From NCBI GenBank assembly GCA_964421125.1, contig CAYQVD010000004.1, positions 930 to 64,929 of the forward strand: a stretch of 64,000 nucleotides of DNA. Reading direction: 5' to 3'. This DNA is from an uncultured Bdellovibrionales bacterium. GTDB taxonomy: Bacteria > Patescibacteriota > Minisyncoccia > Moranbacterales > DUUL01. The notes beneath the pieces are model-generated. The model was not told where the DNA came from and did not search any database. It saw nothing but the letters and a program-made list of their open reading frames with translations. Positions 1,881-52,611 of the stretch are shown here, one piece after another. The position numbers and the translations under genes were made by a program. Within the stretch, counting starts at the first letter, position 1; the number at the start of each line of letters is the position of its first letter.

Positions 1881-2666
1881 TTACTCTTCCTCTAAAGACA
1901 AAGGATTTTTCGGTAAACTTTCCCAAAGTAAATCAAAAGTCAGTCTTTGAAGATCCACCAACTCTTTTGACTCAACAACAACTGCCATTTTTTCTTCCCA
2001 AGATGCAATCAGCATCTTGTTATTATAAATATTAATCTCTGGAGAAAAACTCATTTTATCTTCCGGTAAAAACCTTGTATCTCTCATTTCTTCTTGATTA
2101 CGTTTTGCTGTTTCAACAGAAAGCTTATTCTGTGGAATAATTGCTTTAATAAAAATCTTCTTTCCAGCTCTCCTTTTAAAATATTCCGGGAAAAATCCAG
2201 GTAATCCCTTATTCATCGTTTCTACATTAGCATAAGCCAAAATAATGTCTTTTGAAATTAATGTGTCTTCATATGCCTCTCTCATCCCCTTTTCTCCTTC
2301 AAAGAACTGAACTTTAGGCTTATTGGCTGAATAGATATTTTGTAAAGAAATCAACTGTGGCATCAATTCTGTCACTTTTTCTTTTTGTTTTTCTATTTTT
2401 TTAACACTTTCTTCTTTTTCCCTATCTAAATAGGTTACTAAATGTTTTGGATCAAGCGCATTAAAAAAAGTTGATGCGCCTTTTTTATACTTACTAATCA
2501 ACCCTCTCTGCAAAAGAGCATCACAAATATCATAGATAGTAGTCCTATTTAAGCCCGTTTTCCTTGATAAATCCTTAGCTTTCGCCGATCCTAACTCAAC
2601 TAAGCCCAAATAAACTTGGGTTTCTTTTTCTGAAAAATTAAGTTGTTTTAATAGTTTTTCTAGCAT
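1881..2666 (-). CDS. TrmB-like winged-HTH transcriptional regulator (paralog 1 of 6 in the window)
   Basis: The N-terminus ETQVYLGLVELGSAKAKDLSRKTGLNRTTIYDICDALLQRGLI matches the TrmB wHTH. The C-terminal domain is shared with the ORFs at 42634, 48558, 55687 and 63395. Confidence 0.7.
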   Translation of the reverse strand: MLEKLLKQLNFSEKETQVYLGLVELGSAKAKDLSRKTGLNRTTIYDICDALLQRGLISKYKKGASTFFNALDPKHLVTYLDREKEESVKKIEKQKEKVTELMPQLISLQNIYSANKPKVQFFEGEKGMREAYEDTLISKDIILAYANVETMNKGLPGFFPEYFKRRAGKKIFIKAIIPQNKLSVETAKRNQEEMRDTRFLPEDKMSFSPEINIYNNKMLIASWEEKMAVVVESKELVDLQRLTFDLLWESLPKNPLSLEEE

Positions 2667-2678
2667 ATTCTATTAATT

Positions 2679-2933
2679 TTACCCAATTAAATAAGCTTTG
2701 AGTCTCTTTTTGATAAACATCGTCCCGTGATAAGTTTTTAAATACTTTTCACGACGTGTAGCATCTTGTTGATTTAAACAGGCTTCATAATAAATCAATT
2801 TTAAAGGTCTTCTGTTTTTTGTAGAGTTAACTTCTCCTTTCACGTGCAACTCAAATCTTAATTTTAAATTTCTAGTATATCCAATATATCTTTTTCCATC
2901 TTTCTTACTTAAAAGTACATATACATAATACAT
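2679..2933 (-). CDS. GIY-YIG nuclease-family small protein
   Basis: 84 aa starting MYYVYVLLSKKDGKRYIGYTRNLKLRFELH, which matches GIY..YIG.T.NL..R...H. Confidence 0.75.
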   Translation of the reverse strand: MYYVYVLLSKKDGKRYIGYTRNLKLRFELHVKGEVNSTKNRRPLKLIYYEACLNQQDATRREKYLKTYHGTMFIKKRLKAYLIG

Positions 2934-7516: not shown

Positions 7517-8548
7517 TTATAACTCTTCCTCCTTATTATCAACATCCTCCTTTTTAACAGACAAAAGATCTGGATATTCAATCGCCATTTGAGTAAACTT
7601 ATCTATTTGATAAACCTCGTTCACTTCAACTTGAAAAATAATATCATTAAAATCATGTTTCATCTGATTTATCAACCCTCTTAACGCTTTTCGATCCTTA
7701 ATTTCAATATCCAACATAAGTTGCCAATTCCCCATCACTTTCACATAATTAACAATATTTGGATGTTTCACACAAAATTGATACAAAGACTCCACTTTTT
7801 CTTTGTTAAATTGTTTTATCTTAAATAAAACTCGAAACATTCTTAATCCAATAGATTGATAGTTTAAAGTAAATGTTGTTTTTGTAATAATTCCCTTTTT
7901 AATCATTTTTGTATAACTCCTATGAACAACCCCTGTTGTCACGCCCAAAACCTTTGCCATTTCTGAAAACTCCATTCTCCCATCAATTTGAAGAAGTGAA
8001 ATAATTTTTTGATCTAATTCTGACAGTTTCACTACCTTTTTAAATCCCCCTGAAACACTAACGCTTTCTTCTTCGTTTTCTTTATTAAGAAAATACGATC
8101 GAGGAAATTTCAAAAATCCCAATCCAACCACAATCTCACTCATTGTGATGTATTTACCAAATTCACCAAAAACCTCTTGAAGAATTTTATTGTGACTAAA
8201 AACATCTTGGGCAATGATTGCAATAAAAGCATCTGCATAGCCATCACATCGAAAAATAATTGGGATATACTTATTTTCTTTTAATTTCAAAAACATCGCA
8301 TCTTGTTGATCTTTAGTGAGACCACTAAATTTCAACCAATATCCCCAAAAAAATGAATATCCCACTCGATCATAATCAATAAAAGCCCAAAAATGCTTAA
8401 TAACCTCTTCATCCCTAAATCTTGCCATATGATACTTTACTACTTGTGGAGAAGTTTTAATATTTCTAGCTATTTTTGAATAACTAGCTCTTCCATCTTT
8501 TTCAAGCTCAAATAGTATTTTTTTGTCTAAATCTGTTAATTTAACCAT
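7517..8548 (-). CDS. Tandem-duplicated Lrp/AsnC-type wHTH regulator (two HTH_AsnC-like modules in one 343-aa protein)
   Basis: The first module LDKKILFELEKDGRASYSKIARNIKTSPQVVKYHMARF is repeated as LDQKIISLLQIDGRMEFSEMAKVLGVTTGVVHRSYTKM. Confidence 0.55.
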   Translation of the reverse strand: MVKLTDLDKKILFELEKDGRASYSKIARNIKTSPQVVKYHMARFRDEEVIKHFWAFIDYDRVGYSFFWGYWLKFSGLTKDQQDAMFLKLKENKYIPIIFRCDGYADAFIAIIAQDVFSHNKILQEVFGEFGKYITMSEIVVGLGFLKFPRSYFLNKENEEESVSVSGGFKKVVKLSELDQKIISLLQIDGRMEFSEMAKVLGVTTGVVHRSYTKMIKKGIITKTTFTLNYQSIGLRMFRVLFKIKQFNKEKVESLYQFCVKHPNIVNYVKVMGNWQLMLDIEIKDRKALRGLINQMKHDFNDIIFQVEVNEVYQIDKFTQMAIEYPDLLSVKKEDVDNKEEEL

Positions 8549-9650: not shown

Positions 9651-10340
9651 TTAATTGAAACTAAAATTAATTAATATTTTATTTACAATATTAATATCCC
9701 AAAAAACATCAGAGGAAAAATAATCAATTCTACAAACCCCTTTGTAATCTTTCTTTTTTGATGGTTTTCCAATTGTGCGGGGATCAATTTGAACCTTGTA
9801 AAATTGTTCAAAAGAAATCTGGGTTATCTCTTGCCAAAATTTTTCTAACCCTAAGACATCTTGATTAAATCTACATTGTAATGTACACCTAAATTTTGAT
9901 TCGTCAATCTTATAACAATATCTTAAAAGTTTCAAGAATAATTTAATAATGTCTGGATTTGAATTTCCAAAAACCAATGCCCCATTCTCTCTTTTTCCTC
10001 CCTCACCTAAATATAAAACCGCTAAAGCAATTTTAGCAACATCAAAGTCTTTTATTTTAATATCTACTTGCTTATTTTTAAAGAAAAGTGAGTTTAAATA
10101 ATCCTGTTTCTTTTTTCTTTTTGAAATAATTGATTTTTTTCTAGCCTTCTTTAAATTCTTATTTACAATTAATCTTACTTTTTCCTTATAAAAAACAGGT
10201 AACACTAAGCCTTTGCACCAAGTTGACATCGTGCTTTTTGGTATCTCAATCCCAATACTTTTTTTTATTTCTGAATAAGTTAATCCTTTTTTTCTGAAAC
10301 TTATTATCTTTTCTTTAATTTCTTTTGTGTATTTTTTCAT
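9651..10340 (-). CDS. HTH-containing protein with a LAGLIDADG-like motif (LAVLYLGEGG); possible free-standing homing-endonuclease-like or DNA-binding protein
   Basis: N-terminal KIISFRKKGLTYSEIKKSIGI is HTH-like; LAVLYLGEGGKRENG resembles a single LAGLIDADG motif with an acidic Glu. The gene lies directly beside the palindrome array. Confidence 0.4.
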   Translation of the reverse strand: MKKYTKEIKEKIISFRKKGLTYSEIKKSIGIEIPKSTMSTWCKGLVLPVFYKEKVRLIVNKNLKKARKKSIISKRKKKQDYLNSLFFKNKQVDIKIKDFDVAKIALAVLYLGEGGKRENGALVFGNSNPDIIKLFLKLLRYCYKIDESKFRCTLQCRFNQDVLGLEKFWQEITQISFEQFYKVQIDPRTIGKPSKKKDYKGVCRIDYFSSDVFWDINIVNKILINFSFN

Positions 10341-10496
10341 ATATTTATTTGTATTTATATTAATAATCGTACCATACAGTTATTACATGTGTCAACTTTT
10401 GTTCGAACTATTTTTATCACAAGCACCTTCATTGGTCAATTTATTATGCAATGTATATTGTATTATGTCAAGACCACTAATTTCCTCTCTTTAAAT

Positions 10497-11045
10497 TGTT
10501 TCACGTGAAACATTCTGAAATATAAAAATCCTCTTATTAAGGCCTTCAAAAATTAACAAATTTTTAAATTTTCCCTTTTTGTTTCACGTGAAACAATCTG
10601 AAATGTAAAAGCCTTAATAATAGGGGTTTTATAAATTAACAAACTTTTGAAACGCATGAAAATGTTTCACGTGAAACATTCTGAAATGGAAAAGCCTTAA
10701 TAATAGGGTATTGTAAATTAATAAACTTTTAAAGTATCCCTTTTTGTTTCACGTGAAACATTTCTTAGTTTTTAATTGCTGTTTTTTAATCTAAATTGTT
10801 TCACGTGAAACATTTTATAACGTTAAACATAAATAAAGATCCTTTCTTAAATGATCCTTTTTGTTTCACGTGAAACATTCTGAAAAAACCAAATAAAACC
10901 AACTAGCTATAAAGACCATGAGATAAGCATATCCAAAAGTTATCAAATTTTAAAAGGATTATAATTGTTTCACGTGAAACATTTTAATAATAACCTACTT
11001 GACAATTTCACCTCCCTTAAATGCTATAATGTTTCACGTGAAACA
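10497..11045. repeat. Array of 8 copies of the perfect 16-bp palindrome TGTTTCACGTGAAACA (at 10497, 10580, 10663, 10745, 10797, 10862, 10966, 11030); the first four sit in ~83-bp tandem units
   Basis: Every copy is identical. Flanking sequence is partly conserved between units: CCTTTTTGTTTCACGTGAAACATTCTGAAAT.GAAAAGCCTTAATAATAGGG..TAAATTAACAAAC. Confidence 0.9.
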
Positions 11046-11214
11046 TTTTGACTATATTAATATCTCTACCCCTTGACATAATTATATATTCGTGTTTTAA
11101 ATAATTTATTAGTCCTTTTCTACGTAATTTTACAAAGTCCCCCAATATTAACAAATGTATGCATTTGCTTAAAAAATAACTCTGTAGTTTCAGCCTATGG
11201 TTGATCACCCGAAA

Positions 11215-11260
11215 ACAAAAGTTATCCACACCCTCCACAGGATATCCACAAGTTCTGAAC
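11215..11260 (+). promoter_or_regulatory. DnaA boxes upstream of dnaA (GTTATCCACAC, GATATCCACAAG), probably within the dnaA promoter region
   Basis: Matches to TTATCCACA about 100 bp before the dnaA start. Confidence 0.6.
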
Positions 11261-11351
11261 ACTTACCTTGTTGCTTAGTTGTAGATAATAATATAAGATA
11301 TATAAATCAATTACTTAGGGGGTAATTTTTTTATTGTAAATACAAAAAGTT

Positions 11352-12761
11352 ATGACCCATGACGAATTTTGGCAGGCAGTTCTTGGAGAAATAGAGCTTT
11401 CCTTGTCAAAAGCAAGTTTCACAACTTGGTTTAAAAATACTTCAGTTAATCAAATCGGCGACTCCGAGTTTGTTTTGAATGTTCCAAATATTTTTGCTAA
11501 AGAATGGTTAGAAAAAAAATATCGAAAAAATATTCTGGATTCTGTTCAAAAATTTTACCCCAAAGTAACAAAGTTTTCTTGTTTAATCTCTGATAGTCAG
11601 GATTCTTCTCGAAGCATTGACTCTATTGTAAACTTAAAAACAAATCAGTCTCAACAACAAACAAATGCTTCTTCACAGCCACAACGAAATAAACTTAACA
11701 AACCTTCTTCAAAGCCTTTTGGAGGATTTTCTGTTAATAGTAACCTTAACAATCGATATGGCTTTAATTCTTTTGTAATTGGTTCCAATAATGAACTCGC
11801 TTATGCCGCTTGTCGATCAGTCGCGGAAAATCCAGGAAAAAATTATAATCCACTTTTTGTTTATGGGGGAGTAGGACTAGGAAAAACGCATCTTCTTCAA
11901 TCAACAGGGAGTGAGATTCTTCAAAATTTTCCTAATAAAAAAGTGAAGTATATTAGCATGGAAAGATTTGCTAATGAGCTTGTTACTGCAATTCAAACAT
12001 CAAAAGCTAAGAATTTTAAAAATGAATACATTCAACTCGACGTATTAATTATTGATGATGTTCAATTTCTTTCTAATAAAGAAAAGACTCAGGAAGAGTT
12101 TTTTCATGTATTCGAATCATTATATCAACTAGAAAAACAGATAATTATCAGTTCTGATCGACCACCAAAATCAATTCCAACCCTTGAAGATAGACTTCGT
12201 TCAAGATTTGAGGGAGGGATGATGGCTGATATTAGTAAGCCTGATTTAGAAACAAGAATGGCAATTATTAAAAAGAAATTGGCAGAAAAGAATTTCAAGC
12301 TAGACGAGGATATTATTATTTATTTAGCTGAAAATATCTATCATAACGTTCGAGAACTCGAAGGAGCTCTAAATAAAATAATTGTAACCTATCAACTAAA
12401 AAATTATCCTCCATCTCTTGAAAAAATAATGGGTCAAACAGAAGATGTTATATCAACTAATCGACAAAAAGATTTAAGCCCAGATAAAATTATCTGTTCT
12501 GTTGCAGAATTTTTTGATGTTAAAAAAGAAGAAATAATAGGTCGTTGCAGAAAAAAGAAAATTATTAAACCAAGACAACTTGCAATATACCTATTAAGGA
12601 CTGAATTAAACCTTTCTTTTCCTGAAATAGGGAAGGCAGTTGGTGGTCGAGATCACTCAACTGCTATTTATGCTTGTGGAAAAATTGAAAAAGAATTGGA
12701 GGGTAATAAAATTATGGAAGATCATTTAAAATTTATTAAGGAAAAATTTGTAGATTTTTAA
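11352..12761 (+). CDS. dnaA: Chromosomal replication initiator protein DnaA
   Basis: N-terminus WQAVLGEIELSLSKASFTTWFKNT, Walker A GGVGLGKTHLLQ, and the C-terminal DNA-binding region KPRQLAIYLLRTELNLSFPEIGKAVGGRDHSTAIYA. Confidence 0.95.
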   Translation: MTHDEFWQAVLGEIELSLSKASFTTWFKNTSVNQIGDSEFVLNVPNIFAKEWLEKKYRKNILDSVQKFYPKVTKFSCLISDSQDSSRSIDSIVNLKTNQSQQQTNASSQPQRNKLNKPSSKPFGGFSVNSNLNNRYGFNSFVIGSNNELAYAACRSVAENPGKNYNPLFVYGGVGLGKTHLLQSTGSEILQNFPNKKVKYISMERFANELVTAIQTSKAKNFKNEYIQLDVLIIDDVQFLSNKEKTQEEFFHVFESLYQLEKQIIISSDRPPKSIPTLEDRLRSRFEGGMMADISKPDLETRMAIIKKKLAEKNFKLDEDIIIYLAENIYHNVRELEGALNKIIVTYQLKNYPPSLEKIMGQTEDVISTNRQKDLSPDKIICSVAEFFDVKKEEIIGRCRKKKIIKPRQLAIYLLRTELNLSFPEIGKAVGGRDHSTAIYACGKIEKELEGNKIMEDHLKFIKEKFVDF

Positions 12762-12936
12762 TTTTTACGAAATACGAATTATTATTGCGATTTTAGAGAA
12801 TTATCAACAAGAGGACGTCTTAGTGGTTATACTAGAAGTTTTACTTAAATAGATGCCAGGAGGAATGGGGTTTATTTTAAATAAAATATAACTTAATTAA
12901 TAAATAACTTTAACAAATTAATTAATATAAAAATTT

Positions 12937-13521
12937 ATGAACAAAGAAACACCACAACAAGAAACTATTAAAGGTCAAAAAGAAGTCTCAATAGAAAACC
13001 AGGAAAAGATAGATTTAAAATGGAATATAGTAAATAACCCTAACTCTACTGAGGAATATCTTGAAGACATCACTGATTCTAATAAACAACTTGAACGGTA
13101 CCAAGAAAGAGGGAACGGATTTAGACATCTCAGTATTTTTAAAGAAAATATTAATCAGGGAGAAATGATAAAGGAAGTGCTTAATGAAAATGGTGATAAG
13201 GATAAGTTTAATGAGGTTGATGAAAATTTACAAAATTATAAAGAAAAACTAAAAGAGACAGTTGATATAATTGCAAAAAAATGGGAAGACGATTTAAATA
13301 TGGGGCGATTAATGATTTTAGAAGAATTATATACAACTTTAGAGGATAATAAAGAAGCACAAAAATTTAAAGAAATGTTTGAAGAAAAAAGGAGACCAAA
13401 GGATTTAGTTAAAAATGAGGATGTGGTAGATAAAAAACCAAAACTGATTGATTATTCAGCCCAAGAACAAGAGGATAAACAGCAGACAGAAGAAATAAAA
13501 AAGAAGATAGATGAATTATAA
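12937..13521 (+). CDS. Acidic, Lys/Glu-rich hypothetical protein inserted between dnaA and dnaN
   Basis: 194 aa, low complexity, predicted coiled coil. Confidence 0.5.
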   Translation: MNKETPQQETIKGQKEVSIENQEKIDLKWNIVNNPNSTEEYLEDITDSNKQLERYQERGNGFRHLSIFKENINQGEMIKEVLNENGDKDKFNEVDENLQNYKEKLKETVDIIAKKWEDDLNMGRLMILEELYTTLEDNKEAQKFKEMFEEKRRPKDLVKNEDVVDKKPKLIDYSAQEQEDKQQTEEIKKKIDEL

Positions 13522-13589
13522 CTTATTAAATTTATAATTTAATATCCTGTTAACAACCTGTGAATTAGATGTTAAGGATGTTAATTAAA

Positions 13590-13796
13590 ATGTTAATAAG
13601 TTATCCAAAAACTACTCTACTTTACTATTAATAAGTTATCAACATTAATATTTAATACTTTTAAACTTTTTTATCCCCAAGTTTTAATGCTAATTATATT
13701 TATAAATAAAGGATTTTTATAACTTATTAACATAAAAGTTTATAGTAGTAATAATAGTATTTAATAATATATATAATTTATATAACTATACACACC
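13590..13796 (+). promoter_or_regulatory. Putative oriC core: DnaA-box-like sites (TTATCCAAA, TTATCAACA, TTATCCCCA) followed by an extremely AT-rich unwinding element just upstream of dnaN
   Basis: The boxes lie at about 13597, 13627 and 13671. Positions 13680-13795 are more than 85% A+T, and the region sits in the canonical dnaA-dnaN position. Confidence 0.55.
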
Positions 13797-14945
13797 ATGA
13801 AATTTACTTGTAAAACAAATAATTTAAAAGAAGCAGTTAGTAAAGTTGAAAGAATTGTTTCTAAACAAACAACCTTACCAATTTTAGCTAATATTTTAAT
13901 TAAAACAGAAAAAGGAAGGTTGTTAATTGGAGCAACTAATCTTGAAATAGCAATTCGTTCTTATGTGGGAGCTAAAATTGAAAAAGAAGGAGAAATAACT
14001 ATTCCAGCTAGAATATTAAGTGGTTTTTTAACTAGCATTAGAGATGATACTGTAAAATGTGAGTTAAGTGGAACAGAATTAAAGGTTAATTCTGAAAATC
14101 ATAAAATTAAAATAAAGGGGATGGAAGCAAAGGATTTTCCAATTATTCCTCAAGTGCCAAGTGAGTATTTTATTAAAATAAATTCTAATAATTTTAATAA
14201 AGCAATTCCAGGATTATTAGTTTCAGTTGCTCATAATGATACTAGACAGGAATTAAATGGGATATTAATTAAGTTTTCGTTGAAGGAAATTGTTTTTGCT
14301 TCAACAGATAGTTTTCGATTAACTGAAACTAAAATTGAATTACCAGAAGAGGCAATAGGTGAGGATTATGAGGTTTTTATAAATAATACACCGTCAATTA
14401 TTATTCCTTATTTAACTCTTTCTGAATTACAGAGAATTATTGAAGATGGTGAGTTTGAATTAATAATTAGTCAAAATCAATTATTTATTAAAAATGATTC
14501 AGTTAATTTAATTTCAAGGCTAATTAATGGAAGTTATCCAGAATATAATCAGGTTTTACCAGAAAAATATGAAATAGAAGCTAGGATTAATAAAAGCGAA
14601 TTTTTAAATGCTCTTAAAATTGCTTCGTTAGTAGCATCGGTTAATAATGGTGAAGTTAAAATTAGTAATTCTAAGAATAATAAATTTTTAAAAATATCCG
14701 CTGAGTCAGTTGATTCAGGAGAAAATATTTCTAAAATTGAGGCTGAGATAAGTGGTCCAGAATTTGAAGTTATATTTAATTGTCGTTATTTATTAGAAGG
14801 ATTGAATATAGTTGAATCAGATGTTGATAATATTTTATTGAAGTTAAATCCTAGTAAATCACCAGTTATGATTAGAGGATTGAAATCTGAAAAAGAGGAA
14901 GATGAAAAATTTTCTTATGTGATTATGCCTATAATTAAAGGATAA
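13797..14945 (+). CDS. dnaN: DNA polymerase III beta sliding clamp
   Basis: 382 aa; the opening MKFTCKTNNLKEAVSKVERIVSKQTTLPILANILIKTEKGRLLIGATNLEIAIRSYV is typical of DnaN. Confidence 0.9.
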   Translation: MKFTCKTNNLKEAVSKVERIVSKQTTLPILANILIKTEKGRLLIGATNLEIAIRSYVGAKIEKEGEITIPARILSGFLTSIRDDTVKCELSGTELKVNSENHKIKIKGMEAKDFPIIPQVPSEYFIKINSNNFNKAIPGLLVSVAHNDTRQELNGILIKFSLKEIVFASTDSFRLTETKIELPEEAIGEDYEVFINNTPSIIIPYLTLSELQRIIEDGEFELIISQNQLFIKNDSVNLISRLINGSYPEYNQVLPEKYEIEARINKSEFLNALKIASLVASVNNGEVKISNSKNNKFLKISAESVDSGENISKIEAEISGPEFEVIFNCRYLLEGLNIVESDVDNILLKLNPSKSPVMIRGLKSEKEEDEKFSYVIMPIIKG

Positions 14946-17865: not shown

Positions 17866-18906
17866 ATGGAAAAGAAAAATAAAAAACAAGAACGACAATT
17901 ATTATTTAATAAGATTGCAATCTTTTTTGCGATTATGTTTTTGGCTTGGTTTAATTTGTCAAGGGCGGATATTAATGGTCTTAATGTTTTTCAAGATAAG
18001 GATCAAGATGGTATTTCTGATAAAGAAGAATATTCTTATGGAACAGATCCAGAGAAAAAAGATACTGATGGAGATGGTTATTCTGATAAGGTTGAAATTG
18101 AAAGTGGATATGATCCACTAAAACCTGCTCCAGGAGATAAGTTAATTGCGGATAAAGAGACCCAGGTCTTAGGAGATAACGATGTTAATCTTACAGAAGA
18201 GTTTTTTGAAGAAATTAAAAACGAAGAATTTGGTGAGGCGGCGATTTTAAATGAATTAATAACCACAGGAGATGTTACTGAAGAAGAATTAAGTGAATTA
18301 TATTCTGAAAGTGGAGGAGAAGGTGATTTAAGTGAGATTATTAATGGATTAGCTGATGAAAATTTAACCAAAGAAATAGAAGTTGAAATTTCCGAGGATG
18401 ATATAAAGATTCTGTCTAAGCCAGAAGGAGAAGAAGATGAGGTGAGACAAGTCGAAAAAGAGCAAATAGAAGGATACATGAGTTCAATTTTATATATTTT
18501 AGCAGTAAATCGTCCTTTTGAATTAGATGATATTAGTGATTTACCTAGTAAGATATCAGATTATATTTTTCAAATTGAAGGTGATATTGAAGGAGGAAAT
18601 TTAAAGGAGATACAAGAATATAAAAACACAATAAAAGAAACATTTGAACAAATCAAAAAACTTGAAGCCCCATATGTTTTAGTGGAACAGCATTTATCCA
18701 TTTTAAATATTTATCAAATTTTTTACAATGAAATTGATGAAATGAAACTATTAAGTGATGATGACCCTCTTACGCTTTTAGTTTATGCTGGAAAAATAGA
18801 AGGACTTTTTTTTGAACTTGAGCTTGTTCAACAAGAAATACAAGAAGTTTTAGATGAATATGAAATAGACTCCTTTGATTTATCATCAGTGGCTGATAAT
18901 TTTTAA
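17866..18906 (+). CDS. Secreted acidic protein with thrombospondin-type-3-like Ca-binding repeats (DKDQDGISDKEE / DTDGDGYSDKVE)
   Basis: N-terminal signal/TM segment, DxDxDG repeats, and Glu/Asp-rich remainder. Confidence 0.55.
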   Translation: MEKKNKKQERQLLFNKIAIFFAIMFLAWFNLSRADINGLNVFQDKDQDGISDKEEYSYGTDPEKKDTDGDGYSDKVEIESGYDPLKPAPGDKLIADKETQVLGDNDVNLTEEFFEEIKNEEFGEAAILNELITTGDVTEEELSELYSESGGEGDLSEIINGLADENLTKEIEVEISEDDIKILSKPEGEEDEVRQVEKEQIEGYMSSILYILAVNRPFELDDISDLPSKISDYIFQIEGDIEGGNLKEIQEYKNTIKETFEQIKKLEAPYVLVEQHLSILNIYQIFYNEIDEMKLLSDDDPLTLLVYAGKIEGLFFELELVQQEIQEVLDEYEIDSFDLSSVADNF

Positions 18907-18949
18907 GGATTTTTGGTAAATAAATTTATTAAAAGATTTATCTTAAGGA

Positions 18950-19882
18950 ATGTTAAATAAAAGTAAAAAAACTTTAATTATATTTTTAATAGCAATATTT
19001 TTTGTTTTTAATTTTAATATTAAAAAAGTCAATGCGGGAGGATTGTGGTTTGAGTCGATTGCAGCCGAAATAATGCATGAAACTTGGGCGGAACTGTCAG
19101 AACAAATTAAAGGGATATTTATTGCAAAACTTAAGCAAGAAGGACTGAAGGCCTTTGCTAATACAGTTAGGGGTGAAGCAGATGATCAGTTAATTACTAA
19201 TTTTAATTCCTATTTAAGTGGTGAAGTTAAAAATGAAACAGAAGATTATGTAACTAATCTTTATGCAACAGTAGCAGATAGAGATAGTGGGGGTGATTAT
19301 ACTGATATGGCAAGAGGAATAACGCAAAAGGCTATTCAAAACGATTTATCTTCTGAAGTAGGGGGATCAGAAATAGAAAATATACTTAATCCGGGTGCTA
19401 ACGTGAAAGAAGATCTTTTTAAAGCATCTTCTGGGGGAGGAGTTGAAGTTATCCCTCGGATATTAGGTGATAGAGAAAATTTATATGGAAGATTTATGGG
19501 TGAAGCTACAAATATAAGTAATACCAGAGAAGTTATTAAAGAAGCGAAGATAACGGAGGCAACTGGACATGGCTACAGGGGAAATGGAGAGGTTTCTGGA
19601 GAAGTACTTGCTAGTAAGGTTGCTAAAGCAGAGACACTACAACAAGACTTGATTGCTAATGCGACAACTGCTGGAGAGATAGCAGCAATAATGGGAACGG
19701 AATTTGATCCATCGGAGATATTAGCAGCATCTTTAAGATCAGGGAAAGAGGCTTTAAGGAGCCTGGCAAAAGGAGCTTTAGGACCTCTTTATAAAGGTGT
19801 TGCAGGAGTAACAGGTTTGCAGGCTGTAGATGCAATAGCAGGAGGAAATTATTCAGGAATGGGATCTGTTTCATTTCAATAA
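18950..19882 (+). CDS. Secreted Gly/Ala-rich hypothetical protein
   Basis: Signal peptide ...KKVNA|GG; no recognisable domain. Confidence 0.5.
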   Translation: MLNKSKKTLIIFLIAIFFVFNFNIKKVNAGGLWFESIAAEIMHETWAELSEQIKGIFIAKLKQEGLKAFANTVRGEADDQLITNFNSYLSGEVKNETEDYVTNLYATVADRDSGGDYTDMARGITQKAIQNDLSSEVGGSEIENILNPGANVKEDLFKASSGGGVEVIPRILGDRENLYGRFMGEATNISNTREVIKEAKITEATGHGYRGNGEVSGEVLASKVAKAETLQQDLIANATTAGEIAAIMGTEFDPSEILAASLRSGKEALRSLAKGALGPLYKGVAGVTGLQAVDAIAGGNYSGMGSVSFQ

Positions 19883-20047
19883 TAAGGTTTAATGCAAAAA
19901 TTTAAAATAAAAAATCATTATTTTAAAAACAAGCAATTTTTAAGCAGTTGTTATTTTTTAATGAGTAATTATATTTTTAAAATTAAAAAAACAATAGAAG
20001 ACAGATTGTTTCTGTTTTATTTTAAGTTAGAAAATTTTACTGGAAAG

Positions 20048-22057
20048 ATGAGAAATAAAAAAACAATTAGTTTTGTGGCTTCATTTTTTTTATTACTTAT
20101 ACCATTTTTTTCTTTTGCAACAGAAGAGGGAGTCAAGGCTCCTGACTTATTGGAAGAACCTACCGGTGGCTTTTGGGGAAATATGTTTTTTAAAGGAACG
20201 CTTACTATTTTTTATTTAATATTCAAACTTATTGCATATATTTATTTTTTCTTTTTAAAAATTTTAGATTTTACGATATCTGGTAGATTATTTGATGATG
20301 TTTTTTTCTCCCCAACATCTTTAGTTGTTTTAAATACTTCATGGGCAGTTATTCGTGATTTTTTTAATTTATTTTTTATTCTTATTATAGTTTTTATTGC
20401 AATTTCAATCATTTTGGGAATTGATAAATATAATGATAAAAAATTAATTTTTAGAGTGATAATGGCAGCAGTTTTGGTAAATTTTTCAAAAGCAATTTCT
20501 TTAGTGATTATTGATATTTCACAATTAACTATGGGATTTTTTAGTCAAGCAATTACTTTGGTTGGGAATAATTTCATTAATGTTTTTGCTGATAAGCTTA
20601 GTATGGGAAAGGTATTAGGAGGCTTTCCATTTGACAATTCCGCTACTTTTTTTGTTGCATTATTGATATCAATTATTTTTTTGTTTTGTTTGACAGTTTT
20701 AATAGGAATTTTAGCGATAGCTATGGTAATTCGTTTAGTGGCTTTTTGGGTTTTAGTGATTCTTTCTCCAATGGCTATGTTTGGACTTTCTCTTCCGGGA
20801 ACTGCAATTGGAAAGTTAACAAAAAAATGGTTTGAAAAAATGGTTTCATGGGCATTTTTTGGTCCGTTAATGATGTTTTTTTTATGGTTAGCTTTGATAG
20901 TGGTTAGTACGGCTTCAGCGGCTATAACTAGTGGCGATGCTGGTATGTTTGGATCGGTATCCGTTGGTGTTAATCAAAAGGCCTTAGAACAAATGATTTC
21001 TGAAGTTTTAAAAATGCTAATTCCTTTTATCGCAGGAGCTTATTTGCTTTGGTATGGATTTGATCAATCCAGAACATTGTCTCAAGGAGCGGCAAGTGCA
21101 GTTATAGGGTGGGGAGGGGAAAATATGAGTAAATGGGGAAAAACAGCTGCTAAGGGAGTTGGTTATACCGCAGCAGCTCCTCTTGTTGCAGCAGGGGCAG
21201 TAGGAGCTTATGGAGCGAATATGGCGGCAGGAGGAAGTAAAAATCCTCTTAGATTAAAAGAGGATTTAAAAGCTAGATATGAAGGAACAAAAAATCGTGT
21301 AAAAAATTCAAAAATAGTTAAGCCTTTTACAAAAGAAGAAAGAGAAAAAGACTATAAAAATAAAGTTGCTAGGTATTCTGGTGAAACAGAAGAACTTGAA
21401 CGAAGTGTAAATAATGAGGAAGTGAAAAAACTTGAAGAGGATAAGTCTCTTACTAAGGATGATGCTATGTCAAAAATGAATAACACAAGGGCCAGTAAAG
21501 AATCAAGAGTTGCAGCAGCAATGTATTTATCAAAAAAAGGATTTTTAAATAAAGGAAAAGAGCATTCAGCGGCTGAGGAGGCGATGAAATTAACAGGAAA
21601 TAATTCACTCAAGGATACTTTTGATAAAAATTCAAAAGATAAAAATTCTCTTGGTAGATACGAAAGTAATATTAATAAACAAAAAGCTATTGTTAAAAAG
21701 GAAGGGGTAATTACAAATGAAAAGCAGATTGGAATAGAAGCGGAAAACCGTGCAAAGTCTGAAGTTAAAAAAGATATAGACAAAAAATCTCTTGATGACA
21801 TATTAAAAATGGATAAAGAGCTTCTTGAGGATAAAGAAATTTTTGATCATATTAAAAAGATGGGATTTGATCTTAATAATGCTGTTAAAAAAGGCAATAA
21901 GAACTTAACAGGAAAAAAGGCAAGAGCAATTAGAGGGAATCTTAATCTACAAGAAGATAAAAAAACAGTTAAGAATATAAGAACTCATTCTGATGTACAA
22001 AGAGACTTAAGACTTAGAAATGACAAAGAGATAAAAAAACATTTTCCTGAAAAATAA
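20048..22057 (+). CDS. VirB6/TrbL/PrgH-like polytopic membrane protein with a charged C-terminal tail (T4SS channel-component candidate)
   Basis: Signal peptide plus about 8 TM segments, then a ~280-aa Lys/Glu-rich tail. It lies upstream of the PrgI-like and VirB4 genes. The likely start is ATG at 20048 (MRNKKTISFVASFF...) rather than the track's 19892. Confidence 0.5.
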   Translation: MRNKKTISFVASFFLLLIPFFSFATEEGVKAPDLLEEPTGGFWGNMFFKGTLTIFYLIFKLIAYIYFFFLKILDFTISGRLFDDVFFSPTSLVVLNTSWAVIRDFFNLFFILIIVFIAISIILGIDKYNDKKLIFRVIMAAVLVNFSKAISLVIIDISQLTMGFFSQAITLVGNNFINVFADKLSMGKVLGGFPFDNSATFFVALLISIIFLFCLTVLIGILAIAMVIRLVAFWVLVILSPMAMFGLSLPGTAIGKLTKKWFEKMVSWAFFGPLMMFFLWLALIVVSTASAAITSGDAGMFGSVSVGVNQKALEQMISEVLKMLIPFIAGAYLLWYGFDQSRTLSQGAASAVIGWGGENMSKWGKTAAKGVGYTAAAPLVAAGAVGAYGANMAAGGSKNPLRLKEDLKARYEGTKNRVKNSKIVKPFTKEEREKDYKNKVARYSGETEELERSVNNEEVKKLEEDKSLTKDDAMSKMNNTRASKESRVAAAMYLSKKGFLNKGKEHSAAEEAMKLTGNNSLKDTFDKNSKDKNSLGRYESNINKQKAIVKKEGVITNEKQIGIEAENRAKSEVKKDIDKKSLDDILKMDKELLEDKEIFDHIKKMGFDLNNAVKKGNKNLTGKKARAIRGNLNLQEDKKTVKNIRTHSDVQRDLRLRNDKEIKKHFPEK

Positions 22058-22063
22058 AAATAT

Positions 22064-23107
22064 ATGAAAATAAATAAATTACAACTTAATCCTGTTTTTG
22101 CGAGAATTAATAGTGATGACAAAGTTGATGGAGATGAGTTTGAGATATGGTATGAAGAAAAATTTCAAAAAGCTTCGCTTGAAGTGAGACTTGGAATTGG
22201 TGGTGACACGGTAGAAGAAGAAATTCAAAAAATTTGTGAGAAATTTGGGATTTCTGATTGGCAGAAAATTGGATATACAGCCAGGATAATTAGAGATATT
22301 TTTTGTGATGATCTCAAAGAAGACGGAATAAAAAAGATAGCAATTGAGAATATTAATATTGAAAAAGCTGATTTAGCAGTTTTTCTTCAGTTAATTAAAG
22401 AAATAGTAAAAAAAATTAAACAAGCTGGAGAAAAAGAATATACTGAAATAATTGATAAATTAACACTAAAGGAAGCAGTGAGGCTATATCCAGAAATTCA
22501 AAAACAACAAATTTCAGAGAAAGCATTGAGACCTGAAGGTAGCGAATATTTAGTGGCGGGTAATGTAAAAAATTGGTTAACAAATTATTTTCAAGAAGTA
22601 GGGGGGAATAAGCATAGTTCTCTTGAAAGAAGTGATTATTTGTTTAAATCAAAGAGCGTTAAGGGTTTAGATCAAGATGAAATAGAGAATCTAGGAGTGA
22701 TTTTAAAAGCCTTTGATGATGATTCTCTTGTGGCAGTTGACAAGGAATTTAAGGAGATTGATTTTAACGAAAGTAGAGCGTTGGATAATGGGAAAAGAAA
22801 ATTAAATGGTATTATGAAAAGTTATGATAATAACTTGGAAAATGATTTAGTTGAAAATAAAGGAATAGAAAGAATTTCAAAACAACCTGAATATAATTTA
22901 AAACAAAAAGATAAATTTGAAAAAATTGAGAGTACTCCTAGGTTTGAAGTGGACGGAAATTCCAAAAAAAATAATTCAGAAATTCCAAGTAATAATGTCA
23001 TTAGTCTTAAACAAACAGATCCGAATCTTCAGGTAGAAAAAAAAGAAAAGAAAAAAAGTAGAAGTGAAAACGATCAAAATGTTTTAGATTTGAGTGATTT
23101 TGTATAA
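22064..23107 (+). CDS. Hypothetical soluble protein within the T4SS-like cluster
   Basis: 347-aa ORF lying between the VirB6-like and PrgI-like genes; no recognisable domain. Confidence 0.5.
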   Translation: MKINKLQLNPVFARINSDDKVDGDEFEIWYEEKFQKASLEVRLGIGGDTVEEEIQKICEKFGISDWQKIGYTARIIRDIFCDDLKEDGIKKIAIENINIEKADLAVFLQLIKEIVKKIKQAGEKEYTEIIDKLTLKEAVRLYPEIQKQQISEKALRPEGSEYLVAGNVKNWLTNYFQEVGGNKHSSLERSDYLFKSKSVKGLDQDEIENLGVILKAFDDDSLVAVDKEFKEIDFNESRALDNGKRKLNGIMKSYDNNLENDLVENKGIERISKQPEYNLKQKDKFEKIESTPRFEVDGNSKKNNSEIPSNNVISLKQTDPNLQVEKKEKKKSRSENDQNVLDLSDFV

Positions 23108-23119
23108 GCAAATAATAAA

Positions 23120-23521
23120 ATGCGTTATCAAGTCCCACAATTTATTGATATAGAAGACAAAATTGCTTTTCAGTTAACCGCTAAGCAATTGGGTTGGTTT
23201 GCTATTGGTGGAGTAATGCTATTTGTTCTTTGGACTTTTGTTTCGTTTGTCCTGTTTGTTGTTTTTGGCATTATGATCATTGGTGCCTCAGCTGGATTAG
23301 CCTTTGTTAAGATTAATGGAGCGTCGTTATTAGAATATCTTGGTAATAGTTCAACATTTTTTTTCAAACCAAGAATTTTTATTTGGAGAAAAACAGTTAG
23401 TTCTGCAGAAGGTTTATATCAAAAAGCTAGCCCTAATTTACAGAAAAATAATAAAACAAGAGTAAAAAAGAAAAAAATTGAAGATTTAGACAAAATAGTA
23501 AACATTCTTAATTCACAGTAA
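23120..23521 (+). CDS. PrgI-family / VirB3-like small membrane protein
   Basis: MRYQVPQFIDIEDKIAFQLTAKQLGWFAIGG followed by two TM segments is the typical PrgI opening and architecture. Confidence 0.5.
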   Translation: MRYQVPQFIDIEDKIAFQLTAKQLGWFAIGGVMLFVLWTFVSFVLFVVFGIMIIGASAGLAFVKINGASLLEYLGNSSTFFFKPRIFIWRKTVSSAEGLYQKASPNLQKNNKTRVKKKKIEDLDKIVNILNSQ

Positions 23522-23538
23522 CTTTAAAGTTAACGGTT

Positions 23539-24216
23539 ATGCAAGAAAATAAAAACAAAGATAAATATCCATCCTTTCAGGATCAAATGGATATTGCTGA
23601 AATAAAAGAAAATGCAGTTGTCTTAAAAGATGGTTCTTTGAGAGCAGTTCTAGCTGTTTCTGCGATTAATTTTGATTTAAAATCTGACCAAGAACAAGAA
23701 GGACTAATTTTTGCTTATCAAGGATTTTTAAATGCTTTTGATTTCCCTTTTCAAATAGTTGTTTCTTCAAAGAAATTTGATGTTGATCCATATTTATCAA
23801 TGTTGAAAAGAAAAGGTCGAACAGAAACAAATGAATTACTTCGAAGACAAATAGAGGATTATACAACTTTTGTTGGTGAATTAGTTGGAATGGCTAATAT
23901 TATGACTAAACTTTTTTATATTATTATTCCTTTTTACTCAATAGAAAATAAACAAAAAGGATTTTTAAGTAAGATTTCTTCTACTATTAATCCAAGAAAA
24001 ACTATCTATCAAAAAAACGAAGATTTTGAAACATATAAAAATCAACTTTTTCAAAGAGTTGATCAAATAAGTGAAACATTATCTGGCACAGGTGTTAAAA
24101 TGGTTCCACTTAGCACAGAAGAATTAATTGAACTTTTTTATAATTCATATAATCCATCTGAATTTGAGTATGTAAAAATGGAGGATTTAAATAAAATGGA
24201 ATTGGAGAAGAAGTAA
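23539..24216 (+). CDS. Hypothetical T4SS-associated protein
   Basis: 225-aa ORF lying between the PrgI-like and VirB4 genes; any resemblance to a VirB4 N-terminal domain is speculative. Confidence 0.45.
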   Translation: MQENKNKDKYPSFQDQMDIAEIKENAVVLKDGSLRAVLAVSAINFDLKSDQEQEGLIFAYQGFLNAFDFPFQIVVSSKKFDVDPYLSMLKRKGRTETNELLRRQIEDYTTFVGELVGMANIMTKLFYIIIPFYSIENKQKGFLSKISSTINPRKTIYQKNEDFETYKNQLFQRVDQISETLSGTGVKMVPLSTEELIELFYNSYNPSEFEYVKMEDLNKMELEKK

Positions 24217-24234
24217 AAATAAGAAATAATTAAG

Positions 24235-26085
24235 ATGTTCAAGTTATCTAAAAAGAAAAAAGAAAATAAAGAAAAGCAACAAATTGCTCAAGTTCCGAAT
24301 ATTAATAAGAATGATATTCAAGAGCAAAATAGAATTTACAGAGAAGGTCTAGTCAGGGTTTTAGATTTTATTGCTCCTTCAGCTTTAGCTATTTCTTCTT
24401 CTAATATTCAAATTGGAGAAGTTTATTGTCGAACGTTGTTTATAACAGCTTATCCAAAAATTTTACCAATTGGATGGATGGGGGGGATTATTTCCTTGGA
24501 TTTGCCAATGGATATATCTATTTTTGTTCACCCAATTGAAACTGTTAAGATAATGAAGTCTTTGCGAAAAAAAACCACTCAAATTCAATCAGAGCTTGAC
24601 ATCGAATCAAAAAAGGGATTAACCCGTAATCCAATGCTTGAAATGGCGTATAGAAATGTAGAAGAATTAAGAGATAAATTGCAAGAAGGAGTTGAAAAGT
24701 TTTTTAAGATGGGCGTTTATGTAAATGTTTTTGGAAAAAGTTCTGAAAAGCTTGATAAAAATGCTTCATATCTAATCACAACTCTTGAGTCACAATCAAT
24801 TTATGCGAAAAAATCAATTTTTCGGATGAAAGAAGGTTTTGACTCATGTTTACCATTATGTACGGATAAGCTTATGACTGGAATTGATTTTAATACAGCA
24901 CCTTTATCAACTTCATTTCCTTTTATTTCTGCTGATGTGACTTCTAATGAAGGAATTTTGTATGGAGTAAATAAGCACAATAATTCTTTGATTCTTTTTG
25001 ATCGTTTTACAATGGAAAATGCCAATATGGTAGTTTTTGCAAAATCTGGAGCTGGTAAAAGTTATGCGATTAAATTAGAATTATTACGTTCATTAATGCT
25101 TGGAACGAGTGTTATTGTCATTGATCCAGAAGACGAGTATCGATATTTAGCAGAGGCAGTAGATGGAAGTTTTATAAAAATTTCTCTTAACTCTCCTCAT
25201 CATGTTAATCCTTTTCAGTTAGCTATTGAAAAAGGTGTTGATATAAGCGAATTATTGAGATCTAATATCGCTAATTTACTTGGTCTTTTTAAGTTAATGC
25301 TTGGAAGTATAACCCCAGAAGAAAGCGCTGTTCTTGAGAGAGCGATTAGGGAAGTTTATGCATCAAGAGATATCTCAGAAAAAACTTCGCCAGAAAGATT
25401 AGCGGGGATTACCATGCCAATTTTATCTGATTTATATGAAGTTTTGAGAAATATGCAAGGCTCAGAGGATTTAGCAATTAGACTAGAAAAATATACAAAA
25501 GGAGTCTTTTCGGGGTTCTTAAATCATCCATCAAATATATCACTTAATAATCAGTTAGTAGTTTTTAACATTAGAGACCTTGAGGAAGAATTGAGACCAA
25601 TTGCTATGTATCTAATTTTACATCATATTTGGAATGAAATTCGAGTAGATATTAAAAAACGAATAATTGTGGTTGATGAAGCTTGGGTAATGATGGAACA
25701 TGAAGCTGCTGCAAAATTCTTATATTCAATTGCAAAAAGAGTTAGAAAATATTATGGAGGATTAACTACTATAACTCAAGATATTTCCGATTTTATGTCT
25801 TCAAAATATGGAAAACCAATTGTTTCAAATTCTTCTATGCAACTTCTTATGAAACAATCACAATCTTCGATTGATGTAGTGGCTAATACATTTTATTTAA
25901 CAGATAGAGAAAAATATCTTTTAATGAATAGTGGAGTAGGGGAAGGGATCTTTTTCGCTGGTTCTAAGCGAGCTGCAATTCAGGTGGTGGCTTCGTATAA
26001 TGAGGATAAACTTGTGACAACTGATCCAGCACAGCGCTTAGAAATGAAAAAAGAAGAAGTTTCTGATGAGATTGAATTACTTTAA
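24235..26085 (+). CDS. virB4: VirB4/TrsE/PrgJ-family type IV secretion ATPase
   Basis: ...DFIAPSALAISSSNIQIGEVYCRTLFITAYPKILPIGWMGG..., Walker A FAKSGAGKSY, Walker B IVVDEAWVMM, and ...TTITQDISDF. Confidence 0.85.
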   Translation: MFKLSKKKKENKEKQQIAQVPNINKNDIQEQNRIYREGLVRVLDFIAPSALAISSSNIQIGEVYCRTLFITAYPKILPIGWMGGIISLDLPMDISIFVHPIETVKIMKSLRKKTTQIQSELDIESKKGLTRNPMLEMAYRNVEELRDKLQEGVEKFFKMGVYVNVFGKSSEKLDKNASYLITTLESQSIYAKKSIFRMKEGFDSCLPLCTDKLMTGIDFNTAPLSTSFPFISADVTSNEGILYGVNKHNNSLILFDRFTMENANMVVFAKSGAGKSYAIKLELLRSLMLGTSVIVIDPEDEYRYLAEAVDGSFIKISLNSPHHVNPFQLAIEKGVDISELLRSNIANLLGLFKLMLGSITPEESAVLERAIREVYASRDISEKTSPERLAGITMPILSDLYEVLRNMQGSEDLAIRLEKYTKGVFSGFLNHPSNISLNNQLVVFNIRDLEEELRPIAMYLILHHIWNEIRVDIKKRIIVVDEAWVMMEHEAAAKFLYSIAKRVRKYYGGLTTITQDISDFMSSKYGKPIVSNSSMQLLMKQSQSSIDVVANTFYLTDREKYLLMNSGVGEGIFFAGSKRAAIQVVASYNEDKLVTTDPAQRLEMKKEEVSDEIELL

Positions 26086-26134
26086 GTTACGATAAGAATC
26101 TTTATAAAAAAAGAATGTTATAAGGGAAATTTAA

Positions 26135-26812
26135 ATGAAAGCAAAAATATTAAATAAAAAAAATCAATTTTATGTAACATTATTAATTAGTGTTATTATT
26201 ATTGGTTTGCAATGGTTATTAATGAGAGATGTTAAAACTAATGGCGTTTGGGAATGGCTTCTTTCTTCTCTTTTTTTGTTTTTTATTTTACCAATAATCG
26301 TTATTAAATTTTATTTTAAAGAAAATCTTTCTAGTTTTCATTTATCTTTTAATTTTGGATTACGAGAAATTTTAACTACATTAATTTCTGGAGGAATTTT
26401 TATTGGAATATTTTTGTTATTAATGGTAAAATTTAGTTGGTATGAAAATTTCCCTTTTTCAGATTTTTACTTAGGAGATAAAAACGTTTTTCTTTTTATT
26501 TGTTTTTTAATTTCTCCATTAGTTATTTTTTTTAGACAATTTTTCTTTTTGGGATTTTTGTTAAAATCAGCTGAAAAAGTAGTTGGAGCATGGAGGGGTG
26601 TGATAATTTTTTTTATTTTTCTTTTTCTTGCATTTTTTATATCGGGAAAAGATTTTTCAGTTGTGGTTTTTTCTTTAACTTTATTTGTGAATATTTTTCT
26701 TGCATGGTTAGTTTTAAGAACGAGAACAGTCATTTTAACATCTTTGGTTGCTTGGATTATTAGTATGGTAATTGATTTTACTATTTTTTATCAGATAAGT
26801 CTTATTAGATAA
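26135..26812 (+). CDS. Polytopic membrane protein, possibly a degenerate CPBP/Abi-like protein
   Basis: About 6 TM segments; no clear catalytic motifs. Confidence 0.4.
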   Translation: MKAKILNKKNQFYVTLLISVIIIGLQWLLMRDVKTNGVWEWLLSSLFLFFILPIIVIKFYFKENLSSFHLSFNFGLREILTTLISGGIFIGIFLLLMVKFSWYENFPFSDFYLGDKNVFLFICFLISPLVIFFRQFFFLGFLLKSAEKVVGAWRGVIIFFIFLFLAFFISGKDFSVVVFSLTLFVNIFLAWLVLRTRTVILTSLVAWIISMVIDFTIFYQISLIR

Positions 26813-26824
26813 TATGATATATAA

Positions 26825-30721: not shown

Positions 30722-30757
30722 TAAAAAATGAGAAATATTTTATACTAGTTTTAATTT

Positions 30758-31876
30758 ATGACAAAAAAAATTTTTATTATTTCTTCTATTCTTTTTTTAA
30801 TTGCTGGGATTTATTTATTTGTTCAGTTTTTTTTGTTTCAAGAGAAGCCTATTATTCATGAGAATAAAACAAAGGATGATTTAAGCGTATTAAGCAATAA
30901 AGAAAATAGTCTTGATAAAAAGATAGAGAGAGTTATTAAAGAGGAGGTAGTAACTCCCTTAATGGATGTTTCTGGTAATAAAATTTTATACTTTAATCAA
31001 GGTAATTTTCTTTTATCAAACTTGAAAGGTACTGTAAAGTCATCAATAGGTGCCTATCCATTTAATGTGTTGGAAGAAATAAAATGGTCTTCAGATAATA
31101 ATCAGGCAATTATCAAAGATGCTGATAAATATTACATTTTTGATATTAGCAGTTTAGACGCAAAACCTTTTAAGTCAGATGCAGATAATCTTATTTGGGG
31201 AAGTAAAAAAGACCAGGTTATTTATAAGTTTTATGACTCAAATTCTCAGAAGCGATCATTAAATATTGCTGATTCAAGTGGGGCAAGTTGGGAAGAGATT
31301 ACAGAAATTCCTTTTCGTTATGCTGAAATAGAAGTAAATTCAAAAGATAAAAAAGTGGCTCTTTTTTCTTTGCCGAAAGCTTCTCAGGAAACACAGCTTT
31401 TTATTGTGGATTTATTAAAAAAGGAGAAAAGAGAAATTGAAAAGAAGTATAAGGGAGCAGATTATCGATGGTCACCAAATGGAGAAAAACTTCTTTTTTC
31501 TTATACAAAAGATAGCGGAAAAACTAGCTTAGCTATTTTAAATATTAATGATGAAAGTGTTTCAGAATTGAATTTTCCAGGATTAGTAGATAAGTGCGTT
31601 TGGCTAAGTGATTCAATCGGTATTTATTGTGCTAATCTTACTTATAGTGATACAGAAGTTGTTCTTCCTGACGACTGGGAGTCTGGAAAAATATCTTCAT
31701 CAGATACTTTTTGGAAAATAGATACTGTTAAGGGAGAACAAAAAAGAATTCTTGAGTTAAATGAAATAAATGAAAATGTTGATGCAACTTCTTTGTTTAT
31801 GGATAAAGATGAAAAGATTCTGTTTTTTGTAGATAAAAAAACTAATAATTTATTTAGAATTAAACTAGAAAACTAG
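30758..31876 (+). CDS. N-terminally anchored TolB-like/PD40 beta-propeller-like protein
   Basis: N-terminal TM segment; ...YRWSPNGEKLLFSYTKDSGKTSLAILNIND... is PD40-like. Confidence 0.5.
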   Translation: MTKKIFIISSILFLIAGIYLFVQFFLFQEKPIIHENKTKDDLSVLSNKENSLDKKIERVIKEEVVTPLMDVSGNKILYFNQGNFLLSNLKGTVKSSIGAYPFNVLEEIKWSSDNNQAIIKDADKYYIFDISSLDAKPFKSDADNLIWGSKKDQVIYKFYDSNSQKRSLNIADSSGASWEEITEIPFRYAEIEVNSKDKKVALFSLPKASQETQLFIVDLLKKEKREIEKKYKGADYRWSPNGEKLLFSYTKDSGKTSLAILNINDESVSELNFPGLVDKCVWLSDSIGIYCANLTYSDTEVVLPDDWESGKISSSDTFWKIDTVKGEQKRILELNEINENVDATSLFMDKDEKILFFVDKKTNNLFRIKLEN

Positions 31877-52546: not shown

Positions 52547-52611
52547 AGTATCTTCTCCTATTATTAAATGTTTTTTCAAGGAACTAACTGTATGCAATAT
52601 AGTATGTAGAA

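Follow-up and report, generated by a model that had tools for sequence, protein, structure and literature searches.

An array of eight consensus parS sites upstream of dnaA as a probable chromosomal centromere in Moranbacteria-like Patescibacteria

Known parS systems and the array at the origin

The parS site is the near-universal "centromere" of bacteria and is bound by the chromosome-segregation protein ParB. In B. subtilis and C. crescentus, the chromosomal parS/ParB (Spo0J) systems use the same 16-bp consensus, with several origin-proximal copies per origin; in the model species the few parS sites are scattered over kilobases to hundreds of kilobases. The Noc sites (NBS, TATTTCCCGGGAAATA) are likewise 16-bp palindromes and are bound by a ParB paralogue; they are dispersed, avoid the terminus and are not known to cluster at the origin. 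In M. xanthus, 22 parS sites lie within 3 kb, about 4 kb upstream of parA, and are bound by ParB in vitro (PMC3899335). In the sopC centromere of the F plasmid, a 43-bp unit is repeated 12 times in tandem, and every unit contains a 16-bp inverted repeat to which SopB, a protein of the ParB family, binds; the repeats of the pTAR parS are placed at integral helical turns (PMC3597684).

The window (the whole 64-kb stretch of DNA that was analysed) contained eight exact copies of the palindrome TGTTTCACGTGAAACA, starting at 10497, 10580, 10663, 10745, 10797, 10862, 10966 and 11030. They formed an unstranded array of 549 bp (10497–11045), with start-to-start spacings of 83, 83, 82, 52, 65, 104 and 64 bp. 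No copy was expected by chance, and none occurred in 100 dinucleotide-preserving shuffles. The initial annotation had placed the eight palindromes exactly at this position, and all eight were recovered. It had also left their origin specificity to a copy count, which bore the idea out: no further copy was found elsewhere in the 64 kb, with up to two mismatches allowed, and no site was found in the other loci of the clade genomes (20 kb each). The GTTTCAC half-sites outside the array showed no notable enrichment (11 observed, 6.6 expected).

The array was tandemly repeated in part, as had been claimed. Tandem Repeats Finder detected an 83-bp unit repeated 3.2 times with 77% matches at 10496–10762 (unstranded), which carried the first four palindromes. 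The cores of the eight copies were 100% identical, and their 15 + 15 bp flanks only 45% identical in pairwise comparison. The 83-bp unit is a local duplication or expansion; the unit itself was not conserved, and the sites of the relatives were spaced differently.

Assembly breaks inside repeats are frequent. Over 18,141 bp that take in the entire array, an independent Logan assembly (L081, SRR8862237) did not differ from the window, and the array is therefore real and no assembly artefact. A second assembly from ENA (L082) was broken inside the array, yet matched over its last 577 bp.

The array ended 306 bp upstream of dnaA (11352–12761, plus strand), which encodes a 469-aa protein with the Pfam domains DnaA_N, Bac_DnaA and Bac_DnaA_C. 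The gene of the beta clamp, dnaN (13797–14945, plus strand), was identified by Pfam, and the sign of the GC skew switched at about 11–12 kb. The array was oriC-proximal and dnaA-upstream as first described, lying at the skew switch and beside DnaA boxes. Exact DnaA boxes (TTATCCACA) were found at 7438, 9228 and 11222 (0.6 expected), and boxes with one mismatch at 11242, 11280 (minus strand), 13601, 13636 and 13671. The unstranded cluster between the array and dnaA (11222–11288), which was kept in the relatives, consisted of TTATCCACA at 11222–11230, ATATCCACA at 11242–11250 and TGTAGATAA (reverse, one mismatch) at 11280–11288. The three one-mismatch boxes upstream of dnaN (13601–13679, plus strand) were 35 bp apart and are likely the second half of a bipartite oriC, judging from Firmicutes-type origins. 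The earlier separation of the DnaA boxes from the palindrome stands; the positions given for them were roughly right, the exact boxes being those listed above. A DnaA-box or iteron class was rejected for the array, the palindrome being unrelated to TTATCCACA and the real boxes lying apart from it at 11222–11288 and 13601–13679.

An invariant, −35-like TTGACA at 11073–11078 (plus strand), recognised from alignment and sequence, lay 27 bp downstream of the last palindrome and may belong to the dnaA promoter. A −10 element could not be placed confidently beside it, which makes the suggested connection to dnaA regulation weak. A sigma-70 promoter across the last palindrome was rejected, as the spacer of its TTGACA...TATAAT was 20 bp and the promoter scan did not accept it. 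On the other side of the array, a promoter-like TTGACA-17-CATAAT at 10443–10471 (minus strand) pointed towards the ORF at 9651–10340, on the basis of an 11/12 consensus match alone; its −35 box was 25 bp outside the first palindrome.

Two other features of this region were recorded. A 194-aa ORF without Pfam match (12937–13521, plus strand) lay between dnaA and dnaN; it was absent in the related loci L083, L085 and L087, where the dnaA–dnaN gap was just about 260 bp. Downstream of dnaN-DciA-UbiA, a type-IV-secretion-like cluster (17866–31876, plus strand) encoded a TSP3-repeat protein, PrgI, a VirB4/TraG-like ATPase (24235–26085) and a 1298-aa protein without Pfam match, and this arrangement was syntenic in L084, L087 and L111.

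Motif identity, conservation and spacing

By its sequence, the 16-mer is the consensus chromosomal parS, the loading site of ParB/Spo0J, and the motif itself is already well known. A review gives the consensus parS as TGTTNCACGTGAAACA (PMC7022226), and 8/8 copies in the window matched it exactly. Jalal et al. (10.1101/724823) give TGTTTCAC-GTGAAACA as the consensus parS and TATTTCCC-GGGAAATA as NBS, and the identical 16-mer serves as the ParB probe parS67 (PMC3597684). The literature containing the TGTTTCACGTGAAACA string consisted of ParB/parS papers throughout. The initial annotation had treated the motif as unfamiliar; it is in fact a published consensus, matched at 16/16 positions. Its proposal of a dimeric DNA-binding protein as the natural binder agrees with our reading and, the 16-mer being the textbook consensus parS, the expected binder is ParB.

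The rule that G2/A7 with their partners T10/C15 are ParB-specific and not Noc-specific was taken from 10.1101/724823. In the 59 copies compared, which came from six clade genomes, these four discriminating positions (2, 7, 10 and 15) did not vary (100%); NBS differs from parS at two positions per half-site, and all 59 copies carried the parS bases there. Variation in the 59-copy logo was appreciable only at the central C8/G9 (93% and 98%), with T1 and T5 at 98%. In the 17-copy array of L083, all five degenerate parS copies (8511, 8614, 9182, 9240 and 9426) were changed at the central CpG alone, from CACGTG to CATGTG or CACATG. These changes were transitions as expected from cytosine deamination, and CACGTG is a typical restriction-modification target.

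Compared with the model ParABS species, in which parS sites are few and far apart, the window had one site per 66–77 bp, all copies were perfect, and the array was upstream of dnaA and unlinked to parAB (none found in 64 kb). The M. xanthus cluster is, like this array, a dense chromosomal group of many parS sites near the origin. However, at roughly one site per 139 bp it reaches about half the density, contains degenerate copies and lies next to parAB, whereas the copies here were nearly all exact and located at dnaA with no parAB nearby. The array resembles sopC and pTAR in being an array of 16-bp palindromes that is partly tandem (83 bp × 3), with spacings tending to whole turns; sopC differs in its site sequence, and the array described here is chromosomal, has no fixed unit across the array or the relatives and is not beside a partition operon. 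A plasmid-type, sopC-like tandem centromere was rejected, there being only 3.2 tandem units, other spacings of 40–197 bp and no partition operon nearby. What is new here is the presence of parS in a Moranbacteria-like CPR clade, the density of one site per about 66–77 bp with nearly all copies consensus, the fusion of the parS array to the dnaA regulatory region instead of to parAB, and a tendency to helical phasing.

Homologues of DnaA and DUF4446 placed the window in the Patescibacteria (CPR), and its named relatives were Candidatus Moranbacteria. All seven dnaA loci of the clade (7/7, window included) carried 4–17 parS copies upstream of dnaA, with DnaA identities of 59–88%. L083 (DnaA 88% identical) had 17 copies over 1302 bp; L085 (87%) had at least four, its array running to the contig end; L086 (67%) had seven over 609 bp; L087 (66%) had four over 344 bp; L111 (64%) had 15 over 984 bp; and L261 (59%) had five. 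Another locus without dnaA, L196, had eight copies beside the same CCA-enzyme gene. Farther away, no parS with up to one mismatch was found within ±10 kb of dnaA in 80 GTDB Patescibacteria loci (0/80), whose DnaA was 40–50% identical.

Across the 59 copies of the six genomes, the core was 93–100% conserved and the flanks were close to background. This bears out the earlier view of a selection that targets the palindrome rather than the repeat unit: copy number, spacing and flanks changed while the core stayed exact, which is purifying selection on a binding site. Of the two features to be compared in the dnaA upstream region of relatives, the palindrome was kept in 7/7 loci and the 83-bp phasing was not, the spacings of the relatives ranging from 40 to 197 bp. 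By alignment, the dnaA-proximal, last parS (11030–11045, unstranded) kept both its place and its sequence in relatives with DnaA identities down to 67%, and its distance to the dnaA ATG was 306 bp in the window, 307 bp in L083 and 309 bp in L085. The alignment of the dnaA-proximal 420 bp showed a conserved module in the order last parS, 27 bp, invariant TTGACA, DnaA boxes and dnaA. As this proximal module was fixed, the array grows and shrinks on its distal side, the core sites staying exact.

Two other loci with parS clusters and no parAB were observed. L174 (GC 0.24) had 6–7 parS copies (630–1088 and 2429) next to a gene of a CCA-adding enzyme, and L201 had a parS pair (549–629) 2.7 kb upstream of dnaA. 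They are probably other Patescibacteria lineages with parS clusters.

The spacings of the clade clustered at 41–42, 51–52, 60–65, 72, 82–83, 93, 101–104, 112–116 and 123–126 bp. For the pooled spacings (n = 56), which are partly non-independent owing to tandem duplication, the best period was 10.4 bp (R = 0.47, scan-wide p about 0.001), and 70% of them were within 2 bp of n × 10.4 compared with 38% expected. The signal persisted when any one locus was left out (p ≤ 0.003), and the unique spacing values alone gave p = 0.013. Phasing was pronounced in the window, L111 and L196, whereas L083 and L261 showed none. Therefore the idea that the sites face the same side of the helix holds as a pooled tendency at 10.4 bp and fails for the two unphased arrays; whole-helical-turn spacing is a supported tendency that is not present in every array. 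A fixed 83-bp phase was ruled out by the 40–197 bp spacings of the relatives. Unrelated arrays showed no 10.4-bp phasing (R = 0.2), and A-tract (AA/TT) periodicity gave no consistent signal in the arrays.

ParA, ParB and neighbouring genes

A metagenome scan for two exact 16-mer copies 30–60 bp apart returned at least 120 loci, from which two of the window's clade were left out. Among the matches listed, ParA or ParB was encoded in 79/118 unrelated loci. Where at least 3 kb was visible on both sides, parAB lay within 3 kb in 20/22 loci, at a median distance of 148 bp, again among the matches listed. This adjacency ties the motif to ParABS without leaning on the literature. None of the parAB-bearing loci among the matches listed was patescibacterial. 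At least 11 unrelated loci had five or more sites in 1.5 kb, so dense arrays are not unique to the window; one of them, L194, had 10 copies with a period of about 60 bp beside parAB.

Tight clusters of 2–8 exact consensus chromosomal parS were also observed in 43 IMG/VR 'viral' contigs (L217–L259), for example eight copies, mostly 38 bp apart, in L248 (6137–6460). A chromosomal-type ParB was present in the fetched stretch of 1/43 of these contigs, which may be mobile elements hitch-hiking on the ParB of the host.

In the window, no ParB or ParA was found by six-frame motifs (GERR, KGGxGK), by Pfam scans of about 50 ORFs, by custom profile HMMs built from 55 ParB and 65 ParA sequences, or by tblastn with B. 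subtilis Spo0J and Soj. Both tblastn queries are valid, since parAB was detected with them in 79 of the metagenome loci listed. Neither gene turned up within ±10 kb of dnaA in any relative of the clade or in the 80 other Patescibacteria loci. For Patescibacteria, CPR, Moranbacteria, Saccharibacteria and Parcubacteria, the searchable literature yielded nothing relevant on ParB or on partitioning. A ParB is very likely encoded elsewhere in the genome, a view that derives from the sites and not from an observed gene: a 16/16 match has been kept in 4–17 copies across DnaA divergence down to 59% identity.

In about 20 unrelated metagenome loci of other phyla (L103, L136, L181 and others), parB was followed directly by a DUF4446 homologue, which suggests a role of DUF4446 linked to ParABS. 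The DUF4446 gene of the window (41967–42470, minus strand) lay in the order xerC-DUF4446-infB without parB, and three Patescibacteria loci (L212, L213 and L260) had the conserved order xerC-DUF4446-infB(-rbfA), also without parB. The parB-DUF4446 linkage was therefore rejected as a route to the ParB of the clade, DUF4446 being uncoupled from parB in Patescibacteria. Between xerC (44545–45489) and DUF4446, the window had two insertions, a TrmB-like gene and an ORF of 186 aa. In the 1.13-Mb relative L212, a reverse transcriptase (RVT_1) and an adjoining bAvd gene (12793–14214) lay beside infB; the pair looks like a diversity-generating retroelement.

The ORF at 9651–10340 (minus strand) encodes a 229-aa protein (ORF229) that combines an HTH at its N-terminus with one LAGLIDADG-like domain, whose alpha-beta-beta-alpha-beta-beta-alpha core corresponds to the LAGLIDADG fold of homing endonucleases and WhiA-like proteins. 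Its family comprises more than 800 CPR members of about 225 aa, unannotated, without Pfam model and with a transposase-like HTH. The nearest homologue was only 57% identical, and genomes with an 88%-identical DnaA exist in which the gene was lacking. The gene lay beside the array only in L086; it was absent beside the arrays of L083, L087, L111, L196 and L261, and the homologue in L212 was about 54 kb from the array of that genome. Given this patchy distribution and the many members on short contigs, ORF229 is probably a mobile homing-endonuclease-like gene outside the parS system. The initial annotation had suggested this adjacent protein as the binder of the palindrome, and the suggestion had to be given up: the gene was missing beside 5/6 other arrays and belongs to a patchy family, a distribution that rules it out.

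Further DNA-binding genes were observed in the window. Five TrmB-type winged-helix paralogues of 247–271 aa were located at 1881–2666 (minus), 42634–43422 (minus), 48558–49310 (minus), 52521–53336 (plus) and 55687–56430 (minus), and copies also occurred in L083 (two), L087, L196 and L212, a strikingly expanded family for a tiny genome. A stand-alone 84-aa GIY-YIG nuclease-domain ORF (2679–2933, minus strand) adjoined a TrmB-like gene, and a similar small ORF was seen in L212. A 343-aa double-wHTH protein was encoded at 7517–8548 (minus strand), and no orthologue of this gene was detectable in the relatives.

Explanation of the array and its meaning

Taken together with its position, the motif makes it highly probable that the array is a chromosomal centromere, formed by eight consensus parS sites next to oriC and dnaA. 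Among the other explanations, the one that survives best holds that the parS sequence was kept in this lineage while ParB was lost, so that a different binder, for example a TrmB-type wHTH paralogue, uses the sites or they are a relic. The missing ParB and ParA in the 64 kb around the origin and near dnaA in the relatives fit this explanation, as do the parS pairs that adjoin parAB in 20/22 loci elsewhere (among the matches listed) and never in this clade, the uncoupling of DUF4446 from parB, and the TrmB-like wHTH genes, which are abundant and often near the array. However, it is very improbable that the site of an unrelated binder would match 16/16 the one set by the HTH of ParB itself, none of the neighbouring DNA-binding genes was conserved beside the arrays, and the search covered only about 6% of a roughly 1-Mb genome. 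A relic is ruled out by the 4–17 conserved copies across DnaA divergence down to 59% identity. We regard the loss of ParB as improbable.

It is still less probable, to a degree that we would call slight, that the array serves a local transcription factor as a cluster of operators for the control of dnaA and/or the divergent gene. The array does fill the intergenic region between divergent genes, its outermost sites are 25–27 bp from −35-like TTGACA boxes, and ORF229 combines an HTH with a LAGLIDADG/WhiA-like fold. However, the candidate factors do not follow the arrays: ORF229 is absent beside most of them and its family is patchy and mobile-like, and the double-wHTH gene at 7517–8548 has no detectable orthologue in the relatives. 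The motif, on the other hand, accompanies parAB in unrelated organisms and is the universal parS site.

Structural or selfish DNA (iterons, REP/MITE-like or CRISPR-like repeats, RNA hairpins) is a very remote explanation: the array is partly tandem, a perfect palindrome can form hairpins and Rfam gave sub-threshold miRNA-precursor-like hairpin matches only, but conservation was confined to the 16-mer, unlike a REP/MITE the motif had no copy elsewhere in the 64 kb or in other clade loci, and the iteron-like array named by the initial annotation was not borne out, the sites being palindromes and not direct repeats with no Rep gene nearby. CRISPR and known structured RNA were rejected for a 16-bp repeat with irregular spacing (40–197 bp) and no Rfam family at threshold.

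The expected mode of a parS centromere at this locus would, by analogy, be that of other ParABS systems, with ParB nucleation, CTP-dependent sliding, origin segregation and SMC loading. We infer ParB binding and spreading at the array, a role of the phasing and an effect on dnaA along the following lines. ParB dimers, encoded elsewhere in the genome, would bind each palindrome via their HTH domains. On binding CTP, ParB would close to a clamp and slide onto the flanking DNA, leaving the site free for reloading. The many adjacent loading sites would give a high local density of ParB and thereby a partition complex. This complex would mark the origin, once freshly replicated, for SMC loading and/or for segregation by ParA. 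Spacing by whole turns would put neighbouring dimers on the same side of the DNA and could favour ParB-ParB bridging. With the innermost parS 27 bp from the −35-like box and just upstream of the DnaA boxes, the occupancy of ParB may modulate dnaA transcription.

A bolder proposal, which we hold to be rather unlikely, is that Moranbacteria-like Patescibacteria uncoupled the centromere from parAB and rebuilt it as a plasmid-style array of perfect parS sites, often phased, that is joined to oriC and the dnaA promoter. This would link the loading of ParB, the segregation of the origin and the expression of dnaA physically and, in the extreme version, the sites would be used without ParA or by a non-canonical binder. 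If ParB were absent from these genomes, the arrays would be much more interesting.

The centromere reading assigns a function to a conspicuous repeat and would pinpoint both the centromere and the origin region of an uncultivated, ultra-small CPR lineage. Since the sites are dense and all consensus and range from 4 to 17 copies among close relatives, they would provide a useful natural series for relating site number and helical phase to ParB clamp loading and the assembly of the partition complex.
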